This document shows, one piece after another, positions 3,677-24,390 of a stretch of DNA of 32,000 nucleotides (within the stretch, counting starts at the first letter, position 1; every line of letters starts with the position of its first letter). Source of the DNA: Microseira sp. BLCC-F43 (GTDB lineage: Bacteria > Cyanobacteriota > Cyanobacteriia > Cyanobacteriales > Aerosakkonemataceae); assembly GCF_041929235.1 (NCBI RefSeq), contig NZ_JBHFNP010000022.1, positions 97,330 through 129,329 on the forward strand. Reading direction: 5' to 3'. The notes beneath the pieces are model-generated. The model was not told the DNA's origin. It searched no databases and was given only the letters and a program-made list of their open reading frames with translations. The position numbers were made by a program, and so were the translations under genes.

Positions 3677-4687
3677 ATGCTAGACCGCTTACAAGAAATC
3701 AAAACACCCTCGCTGAAAAACCAGCGCATTGCCGTTTTGCTACCTTGTCGCAACGAGGGTTTAACTATTGCCCAAGTAGTGGCAGGTTTTCAAGCGGCGC
3801 TACCAGAGGCGAAAATCTACGTGTACGATAACCGCTCCACCGATAATACAGCAGAACAGGCAGCGGCGGCGGGTGCGATCGTGCGGTACGAACGCATTCC
3901 AGGTAAAGGAAACGTCGTTCGGCGAATGTTTGCCGATATCGAGGCGGATATCTACGTCATGGCAGATGGGGACAACACCTACGAAGCAGCGGCAGTCCGC
4001 AGACTGATCCAGTTTTTGTTAGTTGAACGACTGGACATGGTAGTAGGTGCGAGACGCGAGATAGCCAAAGATAGCGAAGCTTACCGTCCCGGTCACCGCT
4101 TCGGTAATATATTTCTCAAAACCTGCGTTCAATTACTATTTGGAGCGCGCCTAGTCGATATGCTTTCTGGATATCGGGTCTTCTCCCGTCGATACGTCAA
4201 ATCTTTTCCCGCACTATCGAATGGGTTCGAGATTGAAACCGAGTTTACAGTACACGCCCTTGAACTGAAAATGCCGTTTATTGAAGAACCGACGTTATAT
4301 GGTTCGCGTCCGCCCGGTTCAACTAGCAAACTCAGGACATTTCAAGATGGTTGGCGAGTTTTAGGGACGGCAATTTTGTTATTTAAAGAAGCGCGACCTT
4401 TTCTATTTTTTGGCATTATCTTTCTGCTGCTGGCAGCATTTTCCATCCTTTTAGGTATTCCCGTTGTCGAAGATTTTTTCCAAACTGGATTAGTACCGCG
4501 ATTTCCCACTGCAATTTTAGCAGCGTCCACAATGTTGCTCGCTTTTCTCAGCCTCACCTGCGGGATGATTTTAGATTCAGTAGCGCGCGGGCGGCGAGAA
4601 ACCAAACGCATGGTTTATCTTTCCTATCCCGCACCCGAAGCGGGGATTTATGAAAGTGCAACTGATGAAAGTCATCCCCTCAATTAA
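3677..4687 (+). CDS. GT2 family glycosyltransferase with two C-terminal TM helices (GtrB/ArnC/polyprenyl-phosphate sugar synthase-like)
   Basis: N-terminal IAVLLPCRNEG, then DNRSTDNT and ADGD (DxD) motifs. C-terminal helices FLFFGIIFLLLAAFSILLGIPVV and FPTAILAASTMLLAFLSLTCGMIL. Confidence 0.85.
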   Translation: MLDRLQEIKTPSLKNQRIAVLLPCRNEGLTIAQVVAGFQAALPEAKIYVYDNRSTDNTAEQAAAAGAIVRYERIPGKGNVVRRMFADIEADIYVMADGDNTYEAAAVRRLIQFLLVERLDMVVGARREIAKDSEAYRPGHRFGNIFLKTCVQLLFGARLVDMLSGYRVFSRRYVKSFPALSNGFEIETEFTVHALELKMPFIEEPTLYGSRPPGSTSKLRTFQDGWRVLGTAILLFKEARPFLFFGIIFLLLAAFSILLGIPVVEDFFQTGLVPRFPTAILAASTMLLAFLSLTCGMILDSVARGRRETKRMVYLSYPAPEAGIYESATDESHPLN

Positions 4688-4735
4688 CAGCCTAATCATC
4701 TCTTACGCACCTTATTTAAACCATAGCGAGGCAGG

Positions 4736-6328
4736 ATGAAGACCGTTACAAAAATAGCCCTAATTGCCTTATTATGGCTAACCGTCATCAACTCAGGTAG
4801 TCTGGGAAGTTTAGATACCGACCTGAGATTGCAGATGGCTAACGCCTGGTGGACGGGAACTGAAGAAGTAAGAATTCCCCCTGGATATAAACTCAAGGTG
4901 CGGGGAGATATCGTCGCCGGAATTATGGGAGTTGGGGGTAAGCGTTACATCGCTTACGAACAAGGACAGTCGGTGCTGATGCTTCCTGGAGATTGGTTGG
5001 GAACTCAACTGCATCGCTGGTTTCCCGCAATTCCCGAAAAAGATATGCGGGATTTAGTCGTTAATTTCTTAATTTTTATCCCGTTAAATATCGCTGCTGT
5101 AGTTGCTTGTTTTTGGTTGCTGACGCTGTTTAATTTTAGCGAGAGAGTCTCTGGTTTAGCCAGCCTTCTATTATTACTCGGTACGACGTTTTTGCACTAC
5201 GCCCAAGTGCATCAACATAACAATCAAGTGCTGCTGTTTGTCACGATTGGTTACGCTGGTGCTTTAGCTTGCACGCTGCGGGGAAATCTGCGGATGGCTG
5301 CTATTAGCGGGTTGGCTTTGGGTGGGACGGTTTTGCTCAGAATTACCAGCACGATTCATGGCTTTACCATACTAACTTTTCTCGTCGGTTGTATGGCTTA
5401 TAAAACCCGCGACAAGGATAAAACTATCAAGGCGGCGGGACTTTGGATCGCTGGTTTTATTCCCGTTGCTTTGGTAGGAAGAATTTTTGATTTCATCCGC
5501 TACGGCAGCTTTTTTGCCACGGGTAAAAGTGTAGAAAAACAGCAATTAGCCACCGATCCAATGTGGACGGGATTGCCCGATTTACCCGCAAATTATCCCT
5601 TGGTAAATGAACCGCATGTCGGGATTTTAGGGGCGCTGATTACACCGGCAAAAAGTATTTTTATTTACGATCCGTTACTGATACCTTGCATAATCTTGGG
5701 AATTATTTTCTGGAAACGACTTTCCCCTTATATTCAGTGGTATCTGATTACCGGGTTTTTTAACCTGGGTTTACATTTAGCTGCTTATAGTCGATTCATT
5801 TTCTGGCACGGTGATTCAGCTTGGGGTGCAAGGTATCAAGTTACCACGGTTCAGATGATACTGATTCCGCTGCTGGGATTGTTCGTGCATCAAATTTTAT
5901 CGGAACGGGGGTTAAGGGCTTGGCTGATGCGTGGTATTGTAACGATAGCCATCATGGTGCAAATTGCCTCTGTGACCATGCCAATGAATCTGGAGATCTT
6001 TCAAACCCAGGTGGGAATGCCAGGGAGTCGCTTGGACTTCCGGTTAGCTCAACGTTTGACTAATATGGTTTGCTTGGTCAACAGTTCTTTTTCTAGGGGG
6101 TGCGTTGAAAGAAATCCTGATAAAAAGCGTTTTGTACAAGAGTGGAATCACATCTATTTTCTGCCGTTTAATTTCAGCCATAAAGCGGCGGAGAATCCAA
6201 ATTTAGTTAATTTTACCAGGATTTTGTATGGGTTATGGGGATTAGTTTTAGTCGGCGCGATCGCTGCCACTCTCTGGTTCGTTTTTTGGTCATCTGGTCA
6301 AGCACCAGAGTTGATGAAATTGAGTTAA
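4736..6328 (+). CDS. Polytopic integral membrane protein, possibly a second GT-C-like transferase (unclassified)
   Basis: 530 aa with more than 10 predicted hydrophobic helices. N-terminal signal/TM followed by an acidic loop (SLDTDLRLQ). Lies in an operon between the GT2 gene and the small 4-TM protein. Confidence 0.5.
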   Translation: MKTVTKIALIALLWLTVINSGSLGSLDTDLRLQMANAWWTGTEEVRIPPGYKLKVRGDIVAGIMGVGGKRYIAYEQGQSVLMLPGDWLGTQLHRWFPAIPEKDMRDLVVNFLIFIPLNIAAVVACFWLLTLFNFSERVSGLASLLLLLGTTFLHYAQVHQHNNQVLLFVTIGYAGALACTLRGNLRMAAISGLALGGTVLLRITSTIHGFTILTFLVGCMAYKTRDKDKTIKAAGLWIAGFIPVALVGRIFDFIRYGSFFATGKSVEKQQLATDPMWTGLPDLPANYPLVNEPHVGILGALITPAKSIFIYDPLLIPCIILGIIFWKRLSPYIQWYLITGFFNLGLHLAAYSRFIFWHGDSAWGARYQVTTVQMILIPLLGLFVHQILSERGLRAWLMRGIVTIAIMVQIASVTMPMNLEIFQTQVGMPGSRLDFRLAQRLTNMVCLVNSSFSRGCVERNPDKKRFVQEWNHIYFLPFNFSHKAAENPNLVNFTRILYGLWGLVLVGAIAATLWFVFWSSGQAPELMKLS

Positions 6329-6687: not shown

Positions 6688-6734
6688 GGGGAATTGGTAA
6701 TTGGAAATTGGTAATGGCTAATTGCTAATTGCTT
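6688..6734. repeat. Heptamer tandem repeats (GGAATTG/GTAATTG/GCTAATT)
   Basis: Direct reading: ggggaattggtaattggaaattggtaatggctaattgctaattgctt. Confidence 0.9.
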
Positions 6735-7888: not shown

Positions 7889-7959
7889 GCTAATTGCTAA
7901 TTGCTAATTGCTAATACAGCATTTCTCCTAACACTAGCCATTAGCCATTAGCCATTAGC
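7889..7959. repeat. Heptamer arrays GCTAATT x3-4 and GCCATTA x3
   Basis: Direct reading. Confidence 0.9.
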
Positions 7960-7994
7960 TCCAGGTTTGAAATAACTAGCAACTTGAGTTAATA

Positions 7995-8069
7995 GGTAAT
8001 TGGTAATTGGATTCATTCGTGCTGGAACCGTGACAATTACCAATTACCAATTACCCATTACCTATTACC
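7995..8069. repeat. Inverted GGTAATT / AATTACC heptamer arrays forming a long hairpin between convergent fabH and the ABC gene
   Basis: GGTAATTGGTAATT (7995-8008) is complementary to AATTACCAATTACC in 8034-8049. The loop is ~23 nt. Confidence 0.8.
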
Positions 8070-9970
8070 TAATTCCCCAACATTTGCAACTTGTACAAAC
8101 TAGCATAAAGTCCGCCTTGTTGTAGCAATTCCTGATGACTACCCGACTCGATTAATTGCCCCCGCTTTAATACTAAAATCCGATCTACATTGCGAATAGT
8201 AGAAAGGCGGTGGGCAATAATAATTGCCGTGCGTCCTACTAAAAGTCGGTCTAAAGCATCTTGAATTAATGCTTCCGTTCGCACATCTAAACTCGCGGTT
8301 GCTTCATCTAGCACTAAAATTCTCGGAGCGCGGATCGCAGCACGAGCAAAGGCTAAAAGTTGTTTTTGACCGCCAGATAAATTCGTTCCCCTTTCTCTAA
8401 GTTGGGTGTCGTAACCTTGGGGTAATTGTTCGATAAATTGGGCGACATTTGTGTTTTCTGCAGCAGCAACAACTTGCTCAAAAGCATAAGTTTCCCCCAA
8501 GGTTATGTTACTTTTCACATCTCCAGCAAACAGAAATCCGTCTTGCAGAATAACGCCCATATAGCGGCGTAATTCCGTCTGCGGTACGTCTCGGATATCG
8601 ACGCCATCCAAAAGAATCCGACCTTTTGTAGGTTCGTAGAGGCGGCATAATAGCCGGATTATAGAACTTTTACCAGCACCCGTGGGGCCAACTAATGCGA
8701 CTTTTTCACCCGGATGAATCGTAAAGTCTAAGTCTTGAATAACGTATTCGTCTTGTTTGTAAGCAAACCAAACATGTTCAAATTTGATTTCGCCTGGTAA
8801 TGGGTAATGGGTAATTGGTAATTGGTAATTCTCATCTGTGCCTCTGCTCTCCCGCTGTCGCGATCCTCTGCTATCCATCTCGAATGGTAATGATTTAGGA
8901 TTTTCGGGGTCGCGAATTTCGATCGGTTCGTTGAGGATGTCAGCTATGCGTTCTACGGCGGTGAATCCTGCTTGAATTGAGGTGAATTTTTCGGCAAATT
9001 GTCTTAAGGGGTCGAAGAGACGTTGGGCATATAAAATAAAGGCAGATAGAGTACCGAAACTGAGTTTATCTTGCAGAATCTGAAGTCCACCTAACCATAA
9101 AACGCCTGCGATCGCTACCAACGAAATCCACTCCAGCGTGGCAGATACCGCTGAGTCGTGAAAGATGGTTGCATCTACTTCTTTGATATAGCGTTTGTTG
9201 ATAGTTCGGAACAGTTCGGCATTGAACTTTTCCCGCCGGAATAGCTGAACGACATTAATCCCCAAAATATTTTCTTGCAGCGTCGCGTTAAGCGCAGAAA
9301 GTTCTTCCCTGGCAAAATAATTCGCTTGGCGGTACTGCTGTTGAAAATAAATAATTACACCCGTTACGGGAATCAGCATTAGTACTAGCATTGTCGCCAG
9401 TTGCCATTGCAGGGAAAACATAGCGATCGCAATCACCAAAATCGAAAACAAATCGCTCACAATACCGATAGCACCCGTGGTAAACACATCTCCCAACGCT
9501 TCCACATCGCTAGTGAGGCGGGTAATCAATTTTCCTACTGGAGTCCGGTCAAAAAATCTGACCGCCAAAGAGGTAACGTGGTCGAACAAATCCTCGCGAA
9601 TGGCGTTGGTAATTTGTTGTCCCACCTTCTGCACGGTATAACTTTGGGTAGATACAAGCACCAACCGCCCTAATACCGTTAACAGCAGTAAACCGGCTAA
9701 AATATTTAACCCGGTTGATAAATCTCTACCTTGGAGAATCGACCAAGTTTGCTCTTTGCGAATTAAAGAAATTGCCTGTCCGATGATTAGGGGTTGAATT
9801 GCCCCAGATACCGCCACCGGCACCAATAATATCATCGAAAGCAAAAGCAGGCGTCCGCTACGACGCGCATAAGGGATTAACCGCAGGAATAAACGCCAGT
9901 CGCTTTCCCGCCGTTGGCGCTGCGATCGCTTATAATCGAGTTCTTCTGTCTCCCGCGATGACCCCGTCAT
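8069..9970 (-). CDS. ABC exporter, fused permease and ATP-binding domains (MsbA/MdlB-like)
   Basis: Six-TM N-terminal half. Walker A GPTGAGKSS, signature LSGGQKQ, Walker B ILVLDEATA. Confidence 0.9.
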   Translation of the reverse strand: MTGSSRETEELDYKRSQRQRRESDWRLFLRLIPYARRSGRLLLLSMILLVPVAVSGAIQPLIIGQAISLIRKEQTWSILQGRDLSTGLNILAGLLLLTVLGRLVLVSTQSYTVQKVGQQITNAIREDLFDHVTSLAVRFFDRTPVGKLITRLTSDVEALGDVFTTGAIGIVSDLFSILVIAIAMFSLQWQLATMLVLMLIPVTGVIIYFQQQYRQANYFAREELSALNATLQENILGINVVQLFRREKFNAELFRTINKRYIKEVDATIFHDSAVSATLEWISLVAIAGVLWLGGLQILQDKLSFGTLSAFILYAQRLFDPLRQFAEKFTSIQAGFTAVERIADILNEPIEIRDPENPKSLPFEMDSRGSRQRESRGTDENYQLPITHYPLPGEIKFEHVWFAYKQDEYVIQDLDFTIHPGEKVALVGPTGAGKSSIIRLLCRLYEPTKGRILLDGVDIRDVPQTELRRYMGVILQDGFLFAGDVKSNITLGETYAFEQVVAAAENTNVAQFIEQLPQGYDTQLRERGTNLSGGQKQLLAFARAAIRAPRILVLDEATASLDVRTEALIQDALDRLLVGRTAIIIAHRLSTIRNVDRILVLKRGQLIESGSHQELLQQGGLYASLYKLQMLGN

Positions 9971-10428: not shown

Positions 10429-11688
10429 ATGGCGAGAAATTGGTTGCGCGTCAATCATGTAGCAAATACGATCCAAATTTCCTGGCAACGCGGACAATCA
10501 ACCCCTCGATCTGCTCCAGAAGTAGCATTTCAACACCCTTTTGACGAGCAAGCACTGACAGATTTGCGGTGGTATTTAGAACAATACCTGCGCTTTCCCT
10601 ACGGACTTGAACCCCAAAAAGCAGAACAGATAGAACAGAAATTGCAAGCTTGGGGACAGCAACTATTTGACATCATCTTCCGCAGCAGCGAGGAAGCGCG
10701 GACATTTTTTCAGGAGGCGACGCGAGAAGGGCTAGATCGATGCGAACTCAGTATTATTTCGGATGAACCGGAGATACTTAATTTACCTGGGGAATTGCTG
10801 TAATCGCCGGATTACCAATTTCTCGCGCCGTTGCTGGCTGGAACTTACCGCAGTCTCAGCAGTTATGCCGTGCGGGCAGAAATGGGGGCAATGTCGGATG
10901 AGAAGTTAAATATTTTACTCGTTATCGCGCGACCTTATGGTGAGCAGGATATTAATTTTCAAACGATTGCCCGTCCGGTGCTAGAAGCGCTGCAACCGAT
11001 TCGGCAGCAGGTGAATCTCAAGGTATTGCGTCCCCCTAGTTTAAAGCAGTTTGAGGCAGAACTTCAGGCGCATAAAGGGTTTTATCAAATCGTCCATTTT
11101 GACGGACATGGGGATTTTGAAGCGAATAGCAAAACCGTTCAAACTCAATATGGAAAATTGGGACAAGGGATTTTAGTCTTTGAAGATGCAGAAGGCAACC
11201 CGGAAATTGTCACCGCTAGGGAGATTGCCCAATATTTAACCGATTGTCGCGTCCCGATTTTTCTGCTGAATGCTTGCAAATCGGGACAAGCGGGAGAAGA
11301 ACCCTTTTCATCGGTGGCGGGACAGTTGGTGAAATTGGGTGCCAAAGGCGTGGTAGCAATGGCTTATTCTGTCTACGCGGAAGGGGCGAAACACTTCATG
11401 GCACGCCTGTATGGGGAATTGGTGCGGGGGGAAAGCATCGCCAGTGCTGTAGCGGCGGGGCGGAAATCCATGTCCATCCAGAAGCTGCGCCCCAGTCCCA
11501 AGGGCGATTTACCGTTGCAAGATTGGCTGGTGCCGGTATTGTATCAGCAAGAACCTTGCACGCCGTTTACTCCTAACACTGCACCGCCCAGCTTTTTAGA
11601 CTTAATCAACGCCGCAGAAAACGCCCAATCCAAAATCGGCGTTCCCAGGCAGGAGCCAGGGAACGAGTTAAAATCCATCTTGGTTGAT
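10429..11688 (+). pseudogene. 5' part of a CHAT (caspase-like peptidase)-STAND-TPR gene; contains an in-frame TAA at 10801-10803 and is truncated by an IS insertion
   Basis: ORFs 10429..10803 and 10831..11751 are both in frame 1, separated by a single stop. CHAT His/Cys dyad context IVHFDGHG and FLLNACKSG. The N-terminal DLRWYLEQYL region is typical of this family. The last ~20 codons of the second ORF read into the IS left end. Confidence 0.75.
11641..11664. repeat. Small palindromic insert GTTCCCAGGCaggaGCCAGGGAAC inside the CHAT-NTPase linker (translated VPRQEPGN)
   Basis: 10-bp stem with one mismatch and a 4-nt loop. Related to the GCCAGGGAA/TTCCCTGGC palindrome at 10265-10286. Confidence 0.6.
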
Positions 11689-13040
11689 TTACCGAAAATT
11701 TTGGGTTTAAAGCCCCGCACTTCAGGGCGGCTTTTAGAATCTATGCTATAATCTTATCAGAGGATAAAACGATAAGAATGATTGTCTACGAAAGCAAATT
11801 AGAAGGAGAACAAAACCAGTATGAAAAGCTCGACGGGGCTATTCGTACTGGTCGTTTTGTTCGTAATTCTATTATTCGTGCTTGGATGGATAATCTAATC
11901 AAAAGTCGTAATGATGCTTATGCCTACTGTAAAACTCTAGGGGATAATCCTAAATTCCCTTGGGCTAAACAATTAAACTCTCAAGCCAGACAAGCTCATG
12001 CTGAGAGGGCTTGGGCTTCAATTGAGCGTTTTTATCATAATTGTAGAGCAAAAACACAAGGGAAAAAAGGATACCCGAAGTTTAAAAAATATCAAGTTAG
12101 AGACTCGGTTGAATACAAAGTAAGCGGTTGGAAATTATCAGAAGACCTCCGCTACTTAACATTCACCGATGGATTCAAAGCTGGAACTTTTAAACTTTGG
12201 GGAAGTAGAAACCTTCACTATTATCAACTAGAACAAATTAAGAGAGTTAGAGTTGTTAGAAGACATGATGGTTATTATGCACAATTTATAATCGACCATA
12301 AACGGGAGGAAAGTAAAGAATTAACGGGTAGGCAAATTGGCTTAGACGTTGGGTTAAATCATTTCTATACTGATAGTTTTGGTCAGAAAGTTGATAATCC
12401 TAGATTTCTGAGAAAAGACGAACATAGAATCAAAAAACTACAGCGTCGTCTCTCTAAGACAGAAAAAGGTAGTAAAAATAGAGCCAAAGCGAGAACTAAA
12501 TTAGGTAGAGCGCATCTCAAGGTATCACGCAGACGTAACGACTGGGTTTGTAAATTAGCTCAGCACGTCATACGGTTTAACGACTTAGTAGCAGTTGAGA
12601 ACCTAAAAGTGCGTAATATGATTAAAAACCACTGTCTAGCTAAATCAATATCTGATGCTGCATGGTATCGTTTTCGAGAGTGGTTAGAGTATTTTGGCGT
12701 TGTGTATGGAGTTCCAGTAATAACTGTTAATCCAAAATATACAAGTCAGAATTGCTCTAATTGCGGACAGATAGTGGTTAAAACACTAAGTACCCGTACC
12801 CATAAATGTCCTGATTGTGGTTATGTGGCGGACAGGGACGAAAATGCAGCATTGAATATTTTAAAAGCAGCCTTGAAAGAATGGGCAAATACCGTGGGGC
12901 GCACGGAATTTGAAGTCTCTGGAGAGATTCCCCTCTGTTTGAATCTGGAAACAGAAACAAATAAGGGAACTCGAAGAAAGAGAAAACCTAAGAAGTGATT
13001 CTTAGAATCTCCGCGCGTTCACGCCGGAGAGTACGTCAAC
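11689..13040 (+). mobile_element. TnpB-only IS200/IS605-family (IS1341-like) element; no tnpA
   Basis: Candidate target/TAM TTGAT at 11684-11688. Related imperfect subterminal hairpins at 11709-11734 (LE) and 13008-13030 (RE). Shared 9-mer TTAGAATCT at 11734-11742 and 13002-13010. RE ends ..GTACGTCAAC. The region appears AT-richer by eye than the flanks. Boundaries are uncertain by a few nt. Confidence 0.7.
11778..12998 (+). CDS. tnpB: RNA-guided endonuclease TnpB (IS605 OrfB family)
   Basis: RuvC-I IGLDVGLNHF, RuvC-II VAVENLKVRNM, zinc finger CSNCG...HKCPDCG, RuvC-III DRDENAALNI. All catalytic residues are present. Confidence 0.9.
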   Translation: MIVYESKLEGEQNQYEKLDGAIRTGRFVRNSIIRAWMDNLIKSRNDAYAYCKTLGDNPKFPWAKQLNSQARQAHAERAWASIERFYHNCRAKTQGKKGYPKFKKYQVRDSVEYKVSGWKLSEDLRYLTFTDGFKAGTFKLWGSRNLHYYQLEQIKRVRVVRRHDGYYAQFIIDHKREESKELTGRQIGLDVGLNHFYTDSFGQKVDNPRFLRKDEHRIKKLQRRLSKTEKGSKNRAKARTKLGRAHLKVSRRRNDWVCKLAQHVIRFNDLVAVENLKVRNMIKNHCLAKSISDAAWYRFREWLEYFGVVYGVPVITVNPKYTSQNCSNCGQIVVKTLSTRTHKCPDCGYVADRDENAALNILKAALKEWANTVGRTEFEVSGEIPLCLNLETETNKGTRRKRKPKK

Positions 13041-13056
13041 GGAAGTCAGCGCCTAT
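12850..13056 (+). ncRNA. Predicted omega-RNA (reRNA) scaffold overlapping the tnpB 3' end and RE, plus a ~16-nt flank-derived guide (13041-13056 GGAAGTCAGCGCCTAT)
   Basis: By analogy with characterised TnpB systems, the scaffold spans the 3' end of tnpB and the RE hairpin (13008-13030). The 5' boundary is not determinable by eye. Confidence 0.4.
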
Positions 13057-15156
13057 GGCTTTATCGGGCGAGGTTACGACATTTTGCGCTTAGAACGCGC
13101 TTTTCGCCAAAATTATGTGGTGCTGTTGCAGGGGATGGGCGGGGTTGGCAAAACCGAGTTAGTAGGGGGATTTGCTCGCTGGTTGGATGACACCCAGGGA
13201 CGCACGGGGGGCATTTTCTTCACTAGCTTTGAGCGCGGTGCGGGGTTGAGTCAGGTGGTGAATCAAATTGGCAGAAGCTTGGGGGGTGAGAAATTCGCCC
13301 AGTTAAAGCCAGAACAACAGCAGGCGGTGGTGCGACAATACTTGCAAACCCATCCTTGTCTGCTGATTTGGGATAACTTTGAACCCGTCAATGGGTTTCC
13401 CGCCGGAAATCTGCCATTGTTACCCGCCGCCGAAAGAGAAGAATTGAAGCGGTTTCTCAAAGAATTGCGCGGGGGGCAAACTTGGGTACTAATTACCAGT
13501 CGGCGGGAAGAAGGTTGGTTAGATTGCGGTTACGCGCTGCTGAGTTTGAAGGGACTGGTAAAACAGGATGGGGAAGAGTTAGCGGCGAAGATTCTGCAAT
13601 CAGCGGAGATAAACCGGGCGAAACTGCCAAAAGAATATCTGGAGTTGCTGAAACTATTGGGGGGACATCCCCTGTCCTTGCGGGTGGTACTGCCTCACCT
13701 GAAAACCCAGACACCCGTGCAGTTAATCGAGGCATTGCGGCGGGGATTGGATACGTTCAAGGGTGCAGAGGAGGAAGGTAGAGAGAAATCTTTGCTGGTG
13801 TCGCTGGATTATTCGTTTGCGAAGTTGTCGGAACGGGCGCGGCAGCATTTGCCGTTTTTAGCGCTATTTTCTGAGCGAGTGGATGCAGGTTTCCTCCATC
13901 TTTTGTCGGAAAGTTCTGATAATCAGTTTGGACAGGCATATTGGGCGGTGTTTGGAGAAAACTTGCAGAAGCCCGATTGGATGGGATTGCTCAAGGAAGC
14001 CGCCGCCGCAGGGATTGTAGAACATTTGATGGGAACTATCTACAAAATTCACCCAGCACTGCCTTGGTATTTGCGACAACAGTTAGATACAAAAGGTTCG
14101 CAGGAGGTAATCAATAGCCTAGAAAAAAAGTTGCTACTTTTCTACGCAGAGTTGGCAGATATCTACCATGAGGAACTCATCAGCAATGCGGAATTGGCAA
14201 CCTTTGCGCTGCGAGTAGAAGAGCCGAACCTATTGCAGCATTTACGACTGGCAGAACAGCAGCAGGATTGGGGTAATGCCAAATTTATTCTGACAGCCTT
14301 GGCAGAGGTATATACACGATGGGGGCGCAAACCAGAATTTAAGTCCCTGCGAGAACGGGCGCTGAACCAAATTGGTATCCACTTGGCACAAGCAAAGGCA
14401 AAGGGACGAAATGCCTTTGATTTCTGGATTTATCTGCGGGGAGTAGATGCAAATGAAGCTTTTAAAAGTGCCGACTTGGAAACAGCAAGAGCCTTTTATC
14501 AAGAAATTCTGGATGAATTGACAGCTTTAAATGACCCCTCCGTCAATGGCAATATCGCCTCTTTTAATCACAATCTTGGCTATATTGCCCAAAGGCAACG
14601 ACGGTTTGACGATGCGATCGCTTTTTACAATAAAGCTCTCCAAATTAAAGAAGATGCGGGGGCTTTCTACAGTGCTGCTAGCGACTATCACCATCTAGGA
14701 ATGGTAGCCGAAGATCAACGGCGGTTTGACGATGCGATCGCTTTTTACAATAAATATCTCCAAATTTATGAAGCTGCGGGGGATGCTTACATGGCTGCAT
14801 ATCCCTGTAAGCTTTTAGGAGAAATTGCCAAAGATCAAGGAGATTTTGAGACTGCTGTTGCCTATTTCCAAAAAGCATTTGAAGCCTTAAGTTCAGCAAA
14901 TGATTGGCACAACGCATCTTTAACCCTAGTTGCATGGGGCGAAACCCTGGAAGCCCAATCAAATTGGACTGAAGCCGCGAAAATTTACATCCACGGCTTG
15001 GTCATCGAGGTTAAGCATAATAAAGAGTGGATTGGCTGGTATCTCAAAAATTTAAGGCGAATGCTCAAACAGTTGGGAGACAGCCAATTTGCCACAATTT
15101 GGCGCGAGGTAATAGGCGAAGAATTGCCAGAAGAATGGCGTTCAGTTATTCAATAA
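13042..15156 (+). pseudogene. 3' part of the same gene: NB-ARC-like STAND NTPase plus TPR array
   Basis: Same frame as the CHAT part. FIGRGYDILRLERAF lead-in, Walker A GMGGVGKT, Walker B CLLIWDNFE, LITSR and GGHPLSL motifs, then ~40-aa TPR-like repeats. The first in-frame start after the IS is a TTG at 13084. Confidence 0.75.
14596..14780 (+). repeat. Near-identical 120-nt-spaced intragenic duplication of a TPR unit (QRRFDDAIAFYNKxLQI)
   Basis: 14603-14634 and 14723-14754 are identical over 32 nt. The flanking sequence is similar. Confidence 0.8.
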
Positions 15157-15187: not shown

Positions 15188-15649
15188 GTGGAAACCCAAT
15201 TAACCACCCCCGAAGTCAACGAAAAACGGCAGCTATTGCAAGATTACGAACCCGCTGCCGAGGCATTCGCCATCCTGGAAGAACAGCAAGGCAGACTCGA
15301 TCTTAGTTTTGACGAACTGTGGGCAAAAAAAACAGGTCAAGTGTTTGAAGATCCCAGCAAACGCCAATCCCTCTGGCAAACCACGCTGCAAGTCCTGCGC
15401 CAAGAACTCTGCGGCGATGAAGGCTTTCGCGCCCAATTCAAAGAATATACCAAAAACCCAGGCAGCGCCCCTTTACTCACCGGTTTAATTGTTTCCCTCA
15501 CCACCCTATCCGGCTTGCCCCTCGACCCGGCAATTTCGACGATTATTGTGTTGTATCTGCTCAAAATTGGCTTGAATATCTTTTGCGAATATACGGAATC
15601 TGCGAGTAATTCTGATGGGTCTGGGAGTGCTGATTCACAGGGGAAATGA
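15188..15649 (+). CDS. Hypothetical protein with a hydrophobic C-terminal region; GTG start
   Basis: AGGAG lies ~10 nt upstream of the GTG. Starts 31 nt after the TPR gene stop. C-terminal hydrophobic stretch LLTGLIVSLTTLSGL...ISTIIVLYLLKIGLNIF. Confidence 0.6.
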   Translation: METQLTTPEVNEKRQLLQDYEPAAEAFAILEEQQGRLDLSFDELWAKKTGQVFEDPSKRQSLWQTTLQVLRQELCGDEGFRAQFKEYTKNPGSAPLLTGLIVSLTTLSGLPLDPAISTIIVLYLLKIGLNIFCEYTESASNSDGSGSADSQGK

Positions 15650-15692
15650 GGAGAGAATTAACCAAGTTGCTAGGGAAAACGATCCCCCCAAA

Positions 15693-15711
15693 CCCCCCTT
15701 GCCAAGGGGGG
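15693..15711. terminator. GC-rich hairpin CCCCCCTTGcCAAGGGGGG between convergent genes
   Basis: Perfect 9-nt inverted repeat. No clear U-tract on either strand. Confidence 0.4.
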
Positions 15712-15731
15712 CTTAAGAGAGTAGTATGTAG

Positions 15732-18340: not shown

Positions 18341-18379
18341 GATTTTAGATTTGAGATTTTAGATTTTTGATTTTAGATT
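18341..18379. repeat. TAGATTT-type heptamers in the hisG / response-regulator divergent region
   Basis: Direct reading. Confidence 0.85.
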
Positions 18380-19281: not shown

Positions 19282-20040
19282 TCAACTGTTCAATTTGAAC
19301 AGACTTTCTAAACAAACAACCACGCCAAACCCACCTACAGGTAAAAATGGCAAGTGTCCTGGAGGCGCATTTAAATTGAACTTGAGACGATCGTATTCAA
19401 CCCAACAATGCTTCACCCGCCATCCGACGCGATCGCAAAACCGATACCAAGTACTATAATCTGCTTTACCATTACCTCCAAGGCTTTTCCAAATCGATGC
19501 TTGAACCTGCAAACCAAACTTGCCGTTACTGCATCCATCCCACAACCGATCGATTTTCTTGATTAACTTACCAGACAATCTTTCAATATCTTGCAGTTTG
19601 AGGCAAGTTCCATTTTCCCTTCCACCTGCTTTTAGCATGATTGCCGCTGTTTCTTTATCTGCTTCTTGCCAATTTCCCACCGCCAATAAACCCCCCAACC
19701 GACTACAGTCGATTTCTCCTGGATAAATTGCCGGTAAATATTCTGTTAAAACCTGCTGAATTCTGGGTTCTGCTTGTTCTAGCAAAATTGCATAAGCTTG
19801 CCAACGAACTTGTTCTGAATAGTCTCCTAAAGCTTGAATAACTAAATCTAACCCTGCTTCTCCATAGGTTATAGCTTTTGAGAGAGTTTCTATTTTCTGT
19901 TCTGCTGTACAACGCGAGAACCGATGCTTTAGTCCGGCAATTCCGCCTAAAACTGCGCCATCTACCGGCGGTAAAGCTAAAACTTGACCGCCTCCCAAAA
20001 CAGCATCGTATTCTCTTGGTTGGTTAGGTATATCTGTCAC
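19282..20040 (-). CDS. HEAT-like N-terminal module plus GUN4 domain protein (GTG start)
   Basis: C-terminal half has GUN4-type motifs (LLAVGNWQEADKET, IDRLW, GKFGLQVQ..IW, GHLP). Confidence 0.75.
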   Translation of the reverse strand: MTDIPNQPREYDAVLGGGQVLALPPVDGAVLGGIAGLKHRFSRCTAEQKIETLSKAITYGEAGLDLVIQALGDYSEQVRWQAYAILLEQAEPRIQQVLTEYLPAIYPGEIDCSRLGGLLAVGNWQEADKETAAIMLKAGGRENGTCLKLQDIERLSGKLIKKIDRLWDGCSNGKFGLQVQASIWKSLGGNGKADYSTWYRFCDRVGWRVKHCWVEYDRLKFNLNAPPGHLPFLPVGGFGVVVCLESLFKLNS

Positions 20041-20088
20041 CGCTATTTGACCTTATTTGAATTTAGTATTGACTACAACACCAGTTTC

Positions 20089-21285
20089 CTAAATTCCCCA
20101 AATCTTGATAGTTTTATCATTACTGCCAGCACTCAAACTTTGACCATCCGAACTAAAAGCAAGGCAATTTGGCAAAATATCATCTCCGGTTAAACTATGC
20201 ATTAATTTACCCGTTCTTACATTCCAAAAATTGATTGATTTTTGATAACCATCCCCGATAACAAGAGTTGTTCCATCTGGACTGAAAGCACTACAACGAA
20301 ATAGGTAATGTAACAAGTGGGGATGTGGATCTAAAGTTTGAATTATTTTCCCATCCGGTGTTAAAATTGTAATGGTGCCTTTGAAACAACCAGCAGCAAG
20401 CATTTGTCCATCTGGACTAATAGCAAGCGAATAACCAACCATATTTAACGTGTGGGGTTCGCTTCTATTTTGCCAGTTCCATAACTTAATCGTTCGACTT
20501 ATATCGTTACTGATAAGTGTTTTTCCATCTGGGCTAAATGCTAGGCGAATAATGCTTTCTTTATGGGTTCCCCACATCAGTAAAGGACTGATATTTAAAA
20601 TTAACTTGCCGCTGGTAATATCCCAAATTTTGATACATCTATCGTCGCCGCCAGTGGCAAGGGTTTTAGAGTCATGACTTAGTGCGATCGCTCGAATTTC
20701 CCCTTGATGTCCGTAGAGGGTATGCTGTAATTCTCCCTCCACCCAAATTTCCACAAAACTCTTAGCAGCTTTGATGTTTCTTACCAAAATTTCCCCATCA
20801 TCGCTGATAATAAAAGATTGCTGGTTCCTGGGATATTTAGGAATCGCGTAAAGCAATTCCATCGCGTTCAAATCTACAACTTTTATCGTTCTATTACTCG
20901 CTAAAAATGCTGCTTTATCCCCGGTTGAATTTAATGCAATCTGTTCCCCAGCTTTAACGGTGCGGAGGCATTCAAAAAAACGATAATAATTGATTTTGCT
21001 CAATGCCTGCTTTACTTCTTCTTCTTTCCTTCTTCGCAATTGTAAATAAGCCGTTTTTTGCACCAATTCCGATTCATCTTCTAAAGCTTTAATCCCTATT
21101 TCTAATCCAGCTTTGCCATATTTTTTTGCTTCTTTAACTGCCGCGACTCTGTGTTCCGCAACCGCACTCGCAAAGCGTCTCTTAACTCCAGCAATTCCTC
21201 CCAAAACAGCCCCCGTCGCGGGGATTATATTTTGTCCGCCAAGTACAACATCGTACTCTCTAGGTTCCTGGGTATTCTGTGTCAT
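20089..21285 (-). CDS. HEAT-like N-terminal module plus WD40 repeat protein
   Basis: Repeated WD40 signatures (IKIWDI, IKLWNW, INFWNV, IKIWGI). The N-terminal ~95 aa are homologous to the adjacent GUN4 gene. Confidence 0.85.
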   Translation of the reverse strand: MTQNTQEPREYDVVLGGQNIIPATGAVLGGIAGVKRRFASAVAEHRVAAVKEAKKYGKAGLEIGIKALEDESELVQKTAYLQLRRRKEEEVKQALSKINYYRFFECLRTVKAGEQIALNSTGDKAAFLASNRTIKVVDLNAMELLYAIPKYPRNQQSFIISDDGEILVRNIKAAKSFVEIWVEGELQHTLYGHQGEIRAIALSHDSKTLATGGDDRCIKIWDITSGKLILNISPLLMWGTHKESIIRLAFSPDGKTLISNDISRTIKLWNWQNRSEPHTLNMVGYSLAISPDGQMLAAGCFKGTITILTPDGKIIQTLDPHPHLLHYLFRCSAFSPDGTTLVIGDGYQKSINFWNVRTGKLMHSLTGDDILPNCLAFSSDGQSLSAGSNDKTIKIWGI

Positions 21286-21428: not shown

Positions 21429-21641
21429 TAAAGAGATATCTCGGACAAACAGATAACGTTAATAATGCCGTGTCCCGGCTTCTAATTATGGGTAATCGAC
21501 CGGACATGATATTACCAGCCATTCTGTGAAAAGAAACCGGGTTTCTGTGAAAAATGGTTTAGCAAGTAAAGATAGCTACAAAGAAACCCGATTTCTGATT
21601 TCGTTAACCCCACCCCTGCTGCCAATCAATCCCATTAACAA

Positions 21642-22613
21642 TTAGCAATTAGCAATTAGCAAGGTATTAATTGTATTTTGCATCTTTTCTCGCAATCTTT
21701 GTGCTTGAACGTAATCATTTGAACGATTGCTATCTAAATCAACTGCTGTTTCTGAGTCTGGTTGAATAAAGTAACGCAGGCGAGTTTTCATTGCCCAAAC
21801 TCCCATTGATGGAAATAGGATAAAGAAAATCATTAAAGGGGAAATTGGCAAGAAAGGCAAGTTTAATCTTTTAGCCAATTTCCGCAAATGCACGGTGAAA
21901 GGATGTAAGTATTCATTCCCAATGCAAACAATTGGTAAAATAGGAATTTGATAGATATTGCTCAAGCGAATAAAACTCGGATGAAATGTTTCTAGTTGAT
22001 AGCGGTTTTGCCAAGCTTTACCGGGTCCGCGCAAACCTTCTGGGGCGTAGAGTAAAATGGTTTTTTGCGCTAATGCTGCTGCAAATTCCTCTTTTTCTGC
22101 CCTGACTGCACCCAAAACCTGCGACCATCCAGGTGGTAACCACCAAATCACCCAAGGATGGTCAAATAATGATACTCCAGCTAGGGGTTGCGTTGCCCAT
22201 CCTCGTGCTTTTCCTAACAAATAAGCCAATATCATAAAATCCCAGGGAAAACACATCCCGGCATGGTTCATCGCCACAATTAACGGACCGTTTTGGGGTA
22301 AATTTTCCATTTGTTGCAGTTCGGCGCGATAATAATATTGGGCAATCGGCGCTAAAACTTCTTCCCGGAAAGCTTGCTGATAATTTGGCTCGAATTTAGC
22401 CGTTTCTTGGCGCGGTAAACGACAACCAAGGCGCAACCAACGGATTAACAATGCCACATAAAAACCACCGGGAATCAGAAATAGCGGATATTCCAGCCAA
22501 GTCCAACCATCGGGGTCGCTATGATAATGTTGCCAGTGGCGGTTAAATAAAATCAACCACCCTGGAGGATACCACAGGCAAAATCTATCAAACCAGCTAA
22601 ACCGATAGGACAT
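21642..22613 (-). CDS. Lysophospholipid/glycerol-3-phosphate acyltransferase family (PlsC-like) membrane protein
   Basis: NHAGMCFPWD acyltransferase-type His motif, PEGLRG motif, hydrophobic N-terminal region. Confidence 0.6.
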   Translation of the reverse strand: MSYRFSWFDRFCLWYPPGWLILFNRHWQHYHSDPDGWTWLEYPLFLIPGGFYVALLIRWLRLGCRLPRQETAKFEPNYQQAFREEVLAPIAQYYYRAELQQMENLPQNGPLIVAMNHAGMCFPWDFMILAYLLGKARGWATQPLAGVSLFDHPWVIWWLPPGWSQVLGAVRAEKEEFAAALAQKTILLYAPEGLRGPGKAWQNRYQLETFHPSFIRLSNIYQIPILPIVCIGNEYLHPFTVHLRKLAKRLNLPFLPISPLMIFFILFPSMGVWAMKTRLRYFIQPDSETAVDLDSNRSNDYVQAQRLREKMQNTINTLLIANC

Positions 22614-22620
22614 AGGGAAT

Positions 22621-22745
22621 TTCAGATTTTAGATTTTAGATTTTAGATTTGGGATTTGGGATTGAATACAATCTGCCATCTAGAATCCGAAATTGGCAAT
22701 CGATCTAATTACCTATTACCCATTACCCATTACCCATTACCATTC
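22621..22745. repeat. TAGATTT/GGGATTT heptamers (22621-22663) and CCATTAC heptamers (22707-22745)
   Basis: Direct reading. Confidence 0.85.
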
Positions 22746-24314: not shown

Positions 24315-24390
24315 TTTCAGATTTCAGATTTTAGATTTTAGATTGAAACATGGGTAATTGGTAATTGGTAATTGGTAATTGCTAATTGGT
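24315..24390. repeat. CAGATTT/TAGATTT and GGTAATT heptamer arrays
   Basis: Direct reading. Confidence 0.85.

Follow-up and report, generated by a model that had tools for sequence, protein, structure and literature searches.

The locus described here is, in our judgement very probably, a module of two genes from filamentous cyanobacteria that was inactivated not long ago; it is formed by an NLR-like gene (gene 1) and a partner gene (gene 2). With similarly good confidence, the product of gene 1 can be described as a 1,126-aa "all-in-one" NLR-like protein, in which a short N-terminal region is followed first by CHAT, a caspase-like cysteine protease of clan CD, then by an NB-ARC-like STAND NTPase and finally by a TPR sensor array. 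Two lesions, independent of each other, break gene 1: a nonsense codon and an insertion sequence (IS). The features of the module are given below, numbered within the window, i.e., the whole 32-kb stretch of DNA that was analysed.

10429-10800, + strand: codons 1-124 of the ancestral gene; conserved N-terminal region of ~75 aa (DLRWYLEQYL, 10561-10590), then the start of CHAT; ends with LNLPGELL
10801-10803, + strand: premature TAA, codon 125
10804-11692, + strand: remainder of the CHAT protease domain and variable linker, as far as the TTAC target; HFDGHG (11095-11112) and NACKSG (11269-11286) with the catalytic codons His227 (11107-11109) and Cys283 (11275-11277)
11638-11670, + strand: palindromic 33-bp in-frame insert in the linker (GVPRQEPGNEL)
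13040-15156, + strand: NTPase-TPR part with STAND NTPase, helical/winged-helix domains and TPR sensor; the called ORF begins with TTG 13084
13054-13680, + strand: STAND NTPase motifs YGFIGR (13054-13074), Walker A GMGGVGKT (13132-13155), Walker B LLIWDN (13360-13377), LITSR (13489-13503) and GxP-like GGHPLSL (13660-13680)
14584-14838, + strand: tandem 120-bp (40-aa) TPR units
15188-15649, + strand: conserved 153-aa partner gene with a GTG start, no known family

A sequence-only reading of this region had joined three frame-1 ORFs (10429-10803, 10831-11751 and 13084-15156) into one broken gene. All three are present, each of the motifs it quoted was located in the translations, and alignment with orthologues shows that the ORFs are indeed pieces of a single ancestral gene. 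The protein is shorter than the ~1,400 aa estimated then: cutting out the 1,347-bp insertion (11693-13039), whose length is a multiple of three, leaves an in-frame reading frame of 1,126 codons with the TAA as its one internal stop. The final 59 nt of the 306-aa ORF (11693-11751) are IS sequence and do not belong to the host gene.

More than 1,200 homologues of the reconstructed protein were found in the database. The best 120 of them are mostly single chains of 1,000-1,480 aa with 58-79% identity (BLASTP), and alignment identity with full-length single-chain orthologues is 60-89%. Full-length orthologues from Microseira, Microcoleus, Lyngbya and Nostoc continue unbroken through both lesion sites, with Tyr or Phe at the stop position (LPWELL[Y/F]SPDYQFLAP) and the segment VDLP[E/D]VSAYGFIGR spanning the IS site. 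The match is covered in its entirety by one open frame in 57 of the 69 complete loci taken from species-representative genomes, and relatives with three natural genes divided at the same boundaries were not found among them. The linker palindrome is common to Microseira wollei and missing from more distant orthologues; it predates the IS. The TPR units amount to 2.1 copies at this locus and 11.3 in the Lyngbya orthologue.

The two breaks had both been placed exactly in the linker between protease and NTPase. This holds for the IS, which lies 3' of TTAC at the linker/NTPase boundary, within the codons of the conserved VDLPEV segment, but not for the stop, a Tyr-to-TAA change directly after the conserved LNLPWELL motif and inside the CHAT domain. 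Close to it, codon 121 (GGG, 10789-10791) encodes Gly in place of the otherwise invariant Trp of LPWELL (W121G). Private changes at otherwise invariant columns number just three (intact orthologues range from 0 to 10); with so few further damaging substitutions, the loss of gene 1 looks recent. In the closest relative (L083, 94% identical) the syntenic gene is intact at both lesion positions and was disabled separately, by an out-of-frame deletion of ~1.1 kb that removes the NTPase.

The assumption of a nonsense codon plus an IS was correct on both counts, and the IS can now be specified as a genuine TnpB element whose ends are defined, its mobility and TnpB activity being putative. The ends follow from an empty site in Microseira wollei (L005) and from a second copy at an unrelated locus (L086), with which exact sequence is shared from after TTAC to ...GTACGTCAA, ending in TCAA; the left boundary is ambiguous by 2 nt (CG).

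11689-11692, + strand: TTAC target site/transposon-adjacent motif, abutting the left end on its 5' side
11693-13039, + strand: TnpB-only IS200/IS605-family element, 1,347 bp
11709-11734, + strand: imperfect hairpin 17 nt inside the left end (-5.8 kcal/mol, z=-0.3), conserved in the second copy
11778-12998, + strand: tnpB, 406 aa, apparently intact; RuvC motif residues D190, E274 and D354, CxxC...CxxC zinc finger
12885-13039, + strand: candidate omega-RNA scaffold that overlaps both the 3' end of tnpB and the right end of the element; contains the right-end hairpin (13008-13030) and the terminal TCAA (13036-13039)
13040-13055, + strand: host flank CGGAAGTCAGCGCCTA, putative omega-RNA guide by comparison with Meers et al. 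2023

The 406-aa ORF matches OrfB_IS605 and Cas12f1-like_TNB in Pfam, and its product scores 281.8 bits against guided_TnpB NF040570 (cut-off 100). Neither of the terminal hairpins is significant individually in the fold test. The candidate omega-RNA region folds with z=-4.3 and is conserved at ~100% in nucleotides even in comparison with copies whose TnpB is 91% identical; no Rfam family matches it. The 1,347-bp element contains no tnpA, terminal inverted repeats or target duplication. As tnpA is missing from the rest of the window as well, the element is non-autonomous. Omega-RNA-guided homing and retention were described for IS200/IS605-family TnpB elements by Meers et al. 2023 (bioRxiv 10.1101/2023.03.14.532601). 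Our element resembles theirs in the RuvC triad and zinc finger of TnpB, the subterminal hairpins, insertion 3' of a tetranucleotide (TTAC), the TCAA right end, the lack of target duplication and the conserved 3' RNA region, which is non-coding or overlaps the gene; it differs in lacking tnpA and in having an omega-RNA without an Rfam model. By this comparison, TnpA acting in trans would have brought the element to this site through single-strand "peel-and-paste" transposition. An omega-RNA reading into the flank could then direct TnpB to cut restored or uninterrupted copies, in which TTAC is followed directly by CGGAAGTCAGCGCCTA; in a polyploid cyanobacterium such cutting would help the disrupted allele to persist. 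IS200-family TnpA genes and TA modules have also inserted repeatedly into CHAT-STAND module loci.

The CHAT / NB-ARC-type STAND / TPR identity proposed from the sequence is confirmed by HMM matches, invariant catalytic residues and fold comparison. Pfam finds CHAT in the 306-aa piece (E=5e-19) and in intact orthologues (E=1e-23, approximately residues 75-352), and the His/Cys dyad (H227 and C283) is invariant across the aligned orthologues. The 690-aa piece matches TPR_12 (E=2e-19). Its NB-ARC match is at threshold (23.8 bits, cut-off 23.5), and two of three orthologues tested score under the cut-off. The AlphaFold model of the NTPase-TPR half (pLDDT 79.6) confirms, at the level of a predicted structure, a STAND NTPase with an Apaf-1/plant-NLR/PH0952-like fold. 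Its nearest Foldseek match is PH0952 (E=2e-13), followed by Apaf-1 (E about 2e-7) and the plant NLRs NRC3, ZAR1 and NRC1. PH0952, a STAND ATPase with a TPR sensor (PDB 6mfv), is also the top sequence match of this half (HMM E=8e-4), though the overall TM-score is only 0.32-0.35 and no CHAT domain of PH0952 is aligned.

In multicellular bacteria, computational surveys have described "all-in-one" NLR-like proteins, with CHAT or caspase-like domains at the N-terminus as well as NB-ARC or NACHT and TPR or WD40 domains (Dyrka et al. 2020, bioRxiv 10.1101/2020.01.06.895854, which cites Koonin & Aravind 2002; Kaur et al. 2020, PMC7159879). Gene 1 shares with them the order of effector protease, STAND NTPase and repeat sensor, the bias to filamentous cyanobacteria and TPR units that are internally conserved but variable in copy number; unlike them, the present copy is a pseudogene. 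With Apaf-1 and the plant NLR resistosomes it shares the predicted NBD-HD-WHD fold (matching Apaf-1, NRC and ZAR1) and, by analogy, a logic in which a sensor drives oligomerisation and thereby activates a caspase-type protease; the NB-ARC sequence similarity is marginal. Its sensor is TPR rather than a WD40 beta-propeller or LRR, and its protease is a directly fused CHAT domain rather than one recruited through CARD.

The partner gene lies downstream of the big gene on the same strand in 47 of the 52 orthologous loci with at least 3 kb of flank. Its product has no Pfam match and is predicted to fold as an all-alpha, eight-helix bundle whose C-terminal helices form a hydrophobic hairpin. Its dN/dS between the two lineages in which gene 1 is broken is 0.66, a value based on about 18 substitutions and inflated at low divergence; all other pairs lie at 0.05-0.37, the neighbouring ABC transporter has 0.12 and the CHAT part 0.17. 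These ratios suggest that the partner gene shows relaxed constraint at this locus. The EACC1-caspase "System 4" of Kaur et al. 2020 likewise has a small hydrophobic or transmembrane gene beside a gene for a caspase-superfamily peptidase, whose large product starts with the peptidase and may carry STAND and repeat domains. There, however, the small gene is 5', encodes a single Gly-rich transmembrane helix and is mainly actinobacterial; here it is 3', encodes the Pfam-less helical bundle and is cyanobacterial.

That the loss was adaptive is a possibility we hold with considerable doubt: a CHAT-STAND suicide or abortive-infection effector could be costly, through autoimmunity or a growth trade-off, and null alleles would then be selected. 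Such selection would account for several hits in one lineage (two disabling lesions plus W121G) and for the independent one in the sister lineage, and it fits the premature stops in 12 of the 69 complete loci and the recurrent IS and TA insertions into the module. The same pattern is equally expected if a multi-paralogue family loses one of its members neutrally, since several genomes hold at least two copies and later lesions are free after the first. Moreover, several of the 12 broken loci come from MAG or long-read assemblies or are broken only within the TPR array, whose repeats make assembly errors likely. At our own locus an error is hardly credible, even if single-base stops are a common class of draft-assembly artefact; we found no other support for it. 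Across the locus, five more assemblies built from other samples show 99.8-100% identity, and the identical TAA and IS recur in assemblies that stem from at least five different samples and pipelines (JGI, ENA, Logan). As all six assemblies share the lesions, these are real. The IS, moreover, is complete and occurs a second time at another locus. Readthrough or recoding of the stop, which would leave the gene effectively intact, is just as implausible; TAA is not known to have a recoding signal in cyanobacteria.

The fragments may keep some residual function, because the remaining ORFs are long and open. That the CHAT fragment and/or the NTPase-TPR half started from TTG 13084 act as separate genes, e.g., as a decoy or regulator of paralogous NLR-like proteins, is nevertheless improbable. 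The 306-aa and 690-aa frames have few private substitutions, and read-through into the 3' half could come from tnpB and its omega-RNA, which have the same orientation as the host gene. But open frames are expected soon after inactivation, none of the orthologues shares these boundaries, and the scan for promoter-like sequences gave chance-level results. The CHAT fragment is missing ~50 residues at the start of the Pfam domain, LPWELL included, the putative product from TTG 13084 would also be without the near-invariant YGFIGR segment preceding the P-loop, and the partner gene is apparently under relaxed constraint. Kinship with the type III-E protease Csx29 (TPR-CHAT, "Craspase"), an architecture invoked by the sequence-only reading, or with the SAVED-CHAT signalling proteases has next to no probability. 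The CHAT domain is indeed common to all, PADLOC gives weak matches to SAVED_CHAT and BovA (E about 1e-5), and the top PDB sequence match of the CHAT region is 8tl0 ("CHAT domain-containing protein", E=0.012), which we take to be SAVED-CHAT. However, similarity is limited to the catalytic core, the order here is CHAT-STAND-TPR and not TPR-CHAT, and no cas genes, CRISPR array or SAVED domain are present within the 32 kb.

We therefore return to the recently inactivated NLR-like module. By analogy with STAND/NLR and CHAT biology, the intact protein would rest in an ADP-bound, auto-inhibited state. Binding of a ligand to the TPR array would lead to nucleotide exchange and oligomerisation, through which the N-terminal protease domains would meet, become active and cleave their targets. 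The type of gene is already known and is common in cyanobacteria; what is added is that it is almost always in the company of an uncharacterised small partner gene, a pairing with a specific 150-aa gene that goes unmentioned in the consulted portions of Dyrka et al. 2020 and Kaur et al. 2020. Being co-inherited, the partner protein is a plausible target of the protease, and the outcome of its activation may be that the sensing cell in the filament stops growing or dies.

The broken gene at window positions 10429-15156 is spread over three open reading frames, with a fourth lying between them in another frame (end coordinates include the stop codon):

10429-10803, frame 1, ORF of 124 aa
10831-11751, frame 1, ORF of 306 aa
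11778-12998, frame 3, ORF of 406 aa, between the 306-aa and 690-aa ORFs
13084-15156, frame 1, ORF of 690 aa

The frame 1 ORFs are found exactly where the sequence-only reading had placed them. Translation through the first break gives ...LNLPGELL*SPDYQFLAPLLAG..., and since the frame is unchanged past the TAA at 10801-10803, this break is a single TAA. Frame 1 ahead of 13084 already encodes ...EVSAYGFIGRGYDILRLERAF, so the host gene restarts upstream of the called TTG. Removal of the insertion sequence (IS, 11693-13039) leaves a single frame of 1,126 codons with the TAA as its only internal stop. The proposal of one protein is thus upheld, but at 1,126 aa and not the ~1400 aa suggested for it.

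More than 1,200 homologues of the reconstructed protein were found, and of the best 120 most are single chains of 1,000-1,480 aa. Among the sources are Microcoleus, Lyngbya, Tychonema, Nostoc, Calothrix and Coleofasciculus. In a 13-sequence alignment LNLPGELL*SPDYQFLAP of the window corresponds to LNLPWELL[Y/F]SPDYQFLAP in all orthologues, and VDLP[E/D]VSAYGFIGR runs unbroken over the IS site in every one of them. Among 80 loci in species-representative genomes, 57 have one open frame across the whole match, 12 are interrupted and in 11 the match runs off the contig. Because the alignment is continuous over both breaks and these 57 loci are open, the pieces can be assigned to a single ancestral gene, as had been proposed; relatives with three natural genes sharing the same boundaries were looked for among the 80 loci and none was seen.

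The CHAT domain is recognised by Pfam in the 306-aa piece (E=5e-19, 69.2 bits against a cut-off of 24). In intact orthologues it scores 82-85 bits and spans about residues 75-354, so the stop at codon 125 cuts the protease domain in two, instead of falling in the linker between protease and NTPase where it had been put. The window copy, whose CHAT domain is not one uninterrupted frame, is a pseudogene of a CHAT (Pfam PF12770, clan CD) family member. H227 (HFDGHG) and C283 (NACKSG) are invariant in 13- and 14-sequence alignments, which bears out the suggested His/Cys dyad. The closest solved CHAT structure by sequence, PDB 8tl0, was matched at only E=0.012 with a domain-restricted profile; its HFIGHG and VLNAC motifs align with HFDGHG and NACKSG.

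In the 690-aa piece TPR_12 matches at E=2e-19, together with TPR_1, TPR_2 and TPR_8, while NB-ARC only reaches threshold level (23.8 bits, cut-off 23.5). The intact orthologues P0041, P0002 and P0010 score 26.2, 21.3 and 19.8 bits with NB-ARC, and AAA_16, nSTAND1 and NACHT compete for the region with weak matches. Walker A (GMGGVGKT), Walker B (LLIWDN), LITSR and GGHPLSL are invariant among orthologues. A whole-protein profile search against PDB sequences was swamped by TPR proteins, and the NTPase profile found only PH0952 (6mfv), at a marginal E=8e-4. The AlphaFold model of window 13042-15153 (pLDDT 79.6) was closest in Foldseek to PH0952 (E=2e-13), then to Apaf-1 (E=2e-7 to 5e-7) and to NRC3, ZAR1, NRC2 and NRC1 (E about 1e-6), plus TPR proteins, with LGN- and KLC-like folds among the matches of the TPR part. 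The Pfam score alone is insufficient to name an NB-ARC-type STAND NTPase followed by TPRs; motifs and predicted fold support this identity, in agreement with the sequence-only reading. The TPR array is made of 120-bp tandem DNA units, present in 2.1 copies in the window (14584-14838) and in 11.3 copies in the Lyngbya orthologue (L034, 8758-10110). The copy number varies widely between orthologues, much as the repeats of NLR sensors in fungi and bacteria are reported to do.

In multicellular bacteria, 'all-in-one' NLR-like proteins of the NB-ARC/NACHT-TPR/WD type with CHAT at the N-terminus are described by Dyrka et al. (2020) and Kaur et al. (2020, PMC7159879), and bacterial Apaf-1 relatives with caspase-like N-termini have been noted in a 2026 preprint. 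The gene belongs to an already known, abundant and computationally described class of bacterial NLR-like proteins, of which this locus is an ordinary decayed copy. No biochemical data turned up on this family of CHAT-STAND proteins, and neither PADLOC nor NCBIfam has a system-level model that covers the large protein. The likeness to Csx29 that had been proposed is limited to the CHAT domain in common. In Csx29 of the type III-E Craspase the TPRs are N-terminal to CHAT, while the order here is CHAT-STAND-TPR; Csx29 is accompanied by gRAMP/Cas7-11, Csx30/31 and a CRISPR array, while the window has neither cas genes nor a CRISPR array. PADLOC reported no Csx29 match.

The second lesion is indeed an IS insertion, now identified as a TnpB-only IS200/IS605-family element. 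Its 406-aa ORF matches OrfB_IS605 and Cas12f1-like_TNB in Pfam and the RNA-guided endonuclease TnpB in NCBIfam (NF040570, 281.8 bits against a cut-off of 100), with the RuvC triad D190, E274 and D354 and a CSNCG/CPDCG zinc finger. The ends of the element are fixed by an empty site and a second copy. TTAC at 11689-11692 is followed by the element, which terminates with ...GTACGTCAA at 13039. The empty site, GATTTAC-CCGAAGTCAGCGCC, is found in Microseira wollei NIES-4236 (L005), where the two flanks are 92% and 89.5% identical to the window. The second copy (L086), from a related metagenome, is flanked by genes for a histidine kinase and an aminotransferase and codes for a 94% identical TnpB; the two sequences are common from the base after TTAC through the final TCAA and not past it. 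The insertion thus occurred 3' of TTAC without target duplication. The element is 1,347 bp long (449 x 3), with the left boundary ambiguous by 2 nt due to a CG dinucleotide at both junctions. Imperfect, statistically weak hairpins lie just inside both ends.

A Y1 transposase gene tnpA has no room in the 1,347 bp and none was present among the window ORFs scanned; with no tnpA, the element is non-autonomous. IS200-type Y1 transposases occur in related genomes, twice inside the same two-gene module. BLAST against PLSDB plasmids gave only tnpB genes of about 64% identity and no close copies, and TnpB and two near-identical variants, when looked up by exact sequence, led only to the same locus in other samples; other copies were located via TnpBs of 91-94% identity. 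The IS is a common cyanobacterial one. In L085, the same locus from one metagenome, 13 clustered tnpB SNPs (window-equivalent 12770-12868) are identical to the L086 copy of the same sample; gene conversion from one IS copy to the other would account for this, as would a chimeric assembly.

Over its last ~110 nt tnpB hardly varies, even in comparison with copies whose protein is only 91% identical, and RNA folding of 12885-13059 gives z=-4.3. Conservation and fold together are the signature that would be expected of an overlapping omega-RNA. Rfam searches of the whole window at the gathering threshold and of 11600-13150 at E<=1 found no omega-RNA or other family. In IS605-family elements one adjacent motif is recognised by both TnpA and TnpB, and the right flank supplies the guide (Meers et al., 2023). 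By this mechanism, the guide target would be TTAC followed by CGGAAGTCAGCGCCTA, which is the uninterrupted allele. This TnpB-only IS605-family insertion is cleanly resolved, with an empty site as control, and its predicted omega-RNA guide would be directed at the intact form of an immune-type gene. It would be a natural example of the way elements of this kind can make gene loss permanent in polyploid cyanobacteria.

A 33-bp palindrome (window 11638-11670, DNA hairpin of -11 kcal/mol, z=-5.3) lies 24 nt upstream of the IS target and adds 11 in-frame residues, GVPRQEPGNEL, to the variable linker. It is shared with M. wollei (L005), is missing from more distant orthologues, and has no further copies in the window or the fetched loci; conceivably, it is the footprint of a mini-element.

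Both lesions are present in five further assemblies (JGI 3300032362, 3300032185 and 3300037309; ENA ERZ28782727; Logan SRR30638125) in which the locus is 99.8-100% identical. NCBI has an identical TnpB under the name Microseira sp. BLCC-F43. In a comparison with 50 orthologues, just three columns that are otherwise invariant carry a change private to the window copy: L17I, W121G and H220Q. Intact genes have 0-10 such changes, so the window copy is no outlier; this argues for recent inactivation and against an old, heavily decayed pseudogene. W121G in the LPWELL motif is the sole further change that looks damaging. A promoter and terminator scan performed at chance level, and residual function of the fragments seems unlikely.

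The closest relative also has a defective gene in the syntenic position (L083; MAG contig CAYXCW010000014.1, 6001-8537), next to a 90% identical upstream ABC transporter and the same downstream gene. The gene copy is 94% identical to the window, with Trp121 and Tyr125 intact, and lacks the sequence from ~11579 to ~14035 of the window. With the linker, the IS site and all of the NTPase, about 1.1 kb of host DNA is gone. The deletion junction has only 1-2 nt of microhomology and shifts the frame. This gene may have been disabled independently of the window copy; an IS-bearing ancestor may equally have lost the IS along with its flanks, or, less probably, the deletion is an assembly error of the MAG. 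If independent, two knock-outs in sister lineages would be the pattern expected for costly or dispensable suicide effectors. In L083 the ABC transporter and CHAT genes are also separated by a gene for an MFS transporter (4436-5647), which is absent from the window.

Overall, the main observation and interpretation of the sequence-only reading stand, with corrections to protein length, stop position and IS type. The rest of the window is ordinary chromosomal sequence with genes for glycosyltransferases, FabH, an ABC exporter, hisG and two-component regulators. Tandem repeats of 7 nt (AATTGGT, ATTACCC and similar) occur at 6692-6731, 7889-8079, 8795-8830, 18341-18379, 21634-21662, 22619-22741, 24353-24390 and 29444-29474, several of them in or edging intergenic regions, and resemble the short tandemly repeated (STRR-type) sequences of cyanobacteria. 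On the minus strand (19282-21285), a WD40 beta-propeller gene (398 aa) is directly followed by a GUN4-domain gene (252 aa); association of GUN4 with conflict-system domains in cyanobacteria is mentioned by Kaur et al. (2020, PMC7159879).

The part of the locus that may be new is a near-obligate, uncharacterised partner protein of 153 aa, encoded with a GTG start at 15188-15649, 31 bp downstream of the CHAT-STAND gene. It has no Pfam, NCBIfam or PADLOC match. The partner gene lies downstream on the same strand in 47 of the 52 orthologous loci with at least 3 kb of flank and is the only widely conserved neighbour. Its 368 homologues are unnamed proteins, with the named sources cyanobacterial. 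A profile search against 1.84 billion representatives found 137 proteins, all of 227 aa or shorter; no fusions were seen among them, and there is therefore no Rosetta-stone clue. AlphaFold predicts a compact eight-helix bundle (pLDDT 82, pTM 0.78), with two very conserved hydrophobic helices near the C-terminus. Foldseek against PDB and BFVD gave nothing significant (best E 2.4 and 1.2); several Bcl-2-family entries (E=4-10, TM<0.3) were a non-significant lead and were set aside.

Between the window and L083, both with the CHAT-STAND gene broken, the partner has a dN/dS of 0.66 (12.5 non-synonymous against 5.5 synonymous changes). No other pair with dS<0.45 comes as high, the range being 0.05 to 0.37; the neighbouring ABC transporter and the CHAT part have 0.12 and 0.17. 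Small as the substitution counts are, this suggests that the partner loses constraint after loss of the larger gene.

The gap between the two genes is a recurrent landing site. In many Nostocales it holds a PIN-domain toxin gene and an overlapping gene of ~90 aa (L016 10097-10785, L042 10207-10653, L035 9894-10343 and similar), and at other loci an IS200-type Y1 TnpA gene. A GC-rich palindrome with a 17-bp stem (15684-15720), scored as terminator-like on the minus strand, lies just past the partner stop in the window. At a distant locus (L091, 6001-10541) a distant partner homologue, P0476 (136 aa), is convergent to an unrelated 1,377-aa CHAT-domain protein, beside a phage-type integrase gene, which hints that the association with CHAT extends beyond this CHAT-STAND family; tblastn of the reconstructed protein against the distant partner-homologue loci gave nothing.

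The nearest two-gene analogue is the EACC1-caspase pair (System 4) of Kaur et al. (2020, PMC7159879), where a small 5' gene for a single-TM EACC1 domain stands beside a 3' caspase-first protein. Here the partner is 3', its two hydrophobic helices form part of an eight-helix bundle, and the taxonomy differs; the likeness is only thematic. In the Bell-domain/BASS amyloid-signalling pairs (Dyrka et al., 2020), the small protein carries a hydrophobic helix at its N-terminus, and its C-terminal motif recurs at the N-terminus of the NLR. The partner does not fit this type: its N-terminus is polar (METQLTTPEVNEK) and its variable C-terminal tail is, by eye, unlike the NLR N-terminus (MARNWLRVNH...).

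We speculate, while considering it rather improbable, that CHAT-STAND-TPR and the 150-aa helical partner with its buried hydrophobic hairpin could be the two components of a so far undescribed module that serves cell death or immunity in filamentous cyanobacteria. The partner would be the substrate or the executioner, a latent bundle able to insert into membranes, which the CHAT protease would release or unlock when activated by the NLR. If the partner is cleaved, its variable loop around residues 50-60 would be the obvious place. The logic would be like that of caspase/gasdermin or of Bcl-2-type helical-bundle pore formers. If true, the window and the sister lineage would be cases in which both members of the pair decay once the sensor-protease has been lost. 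The near-obligate pairing makes this orphan-fold protein of 150 aa a concrete, testable candidate for the substrate or effector.
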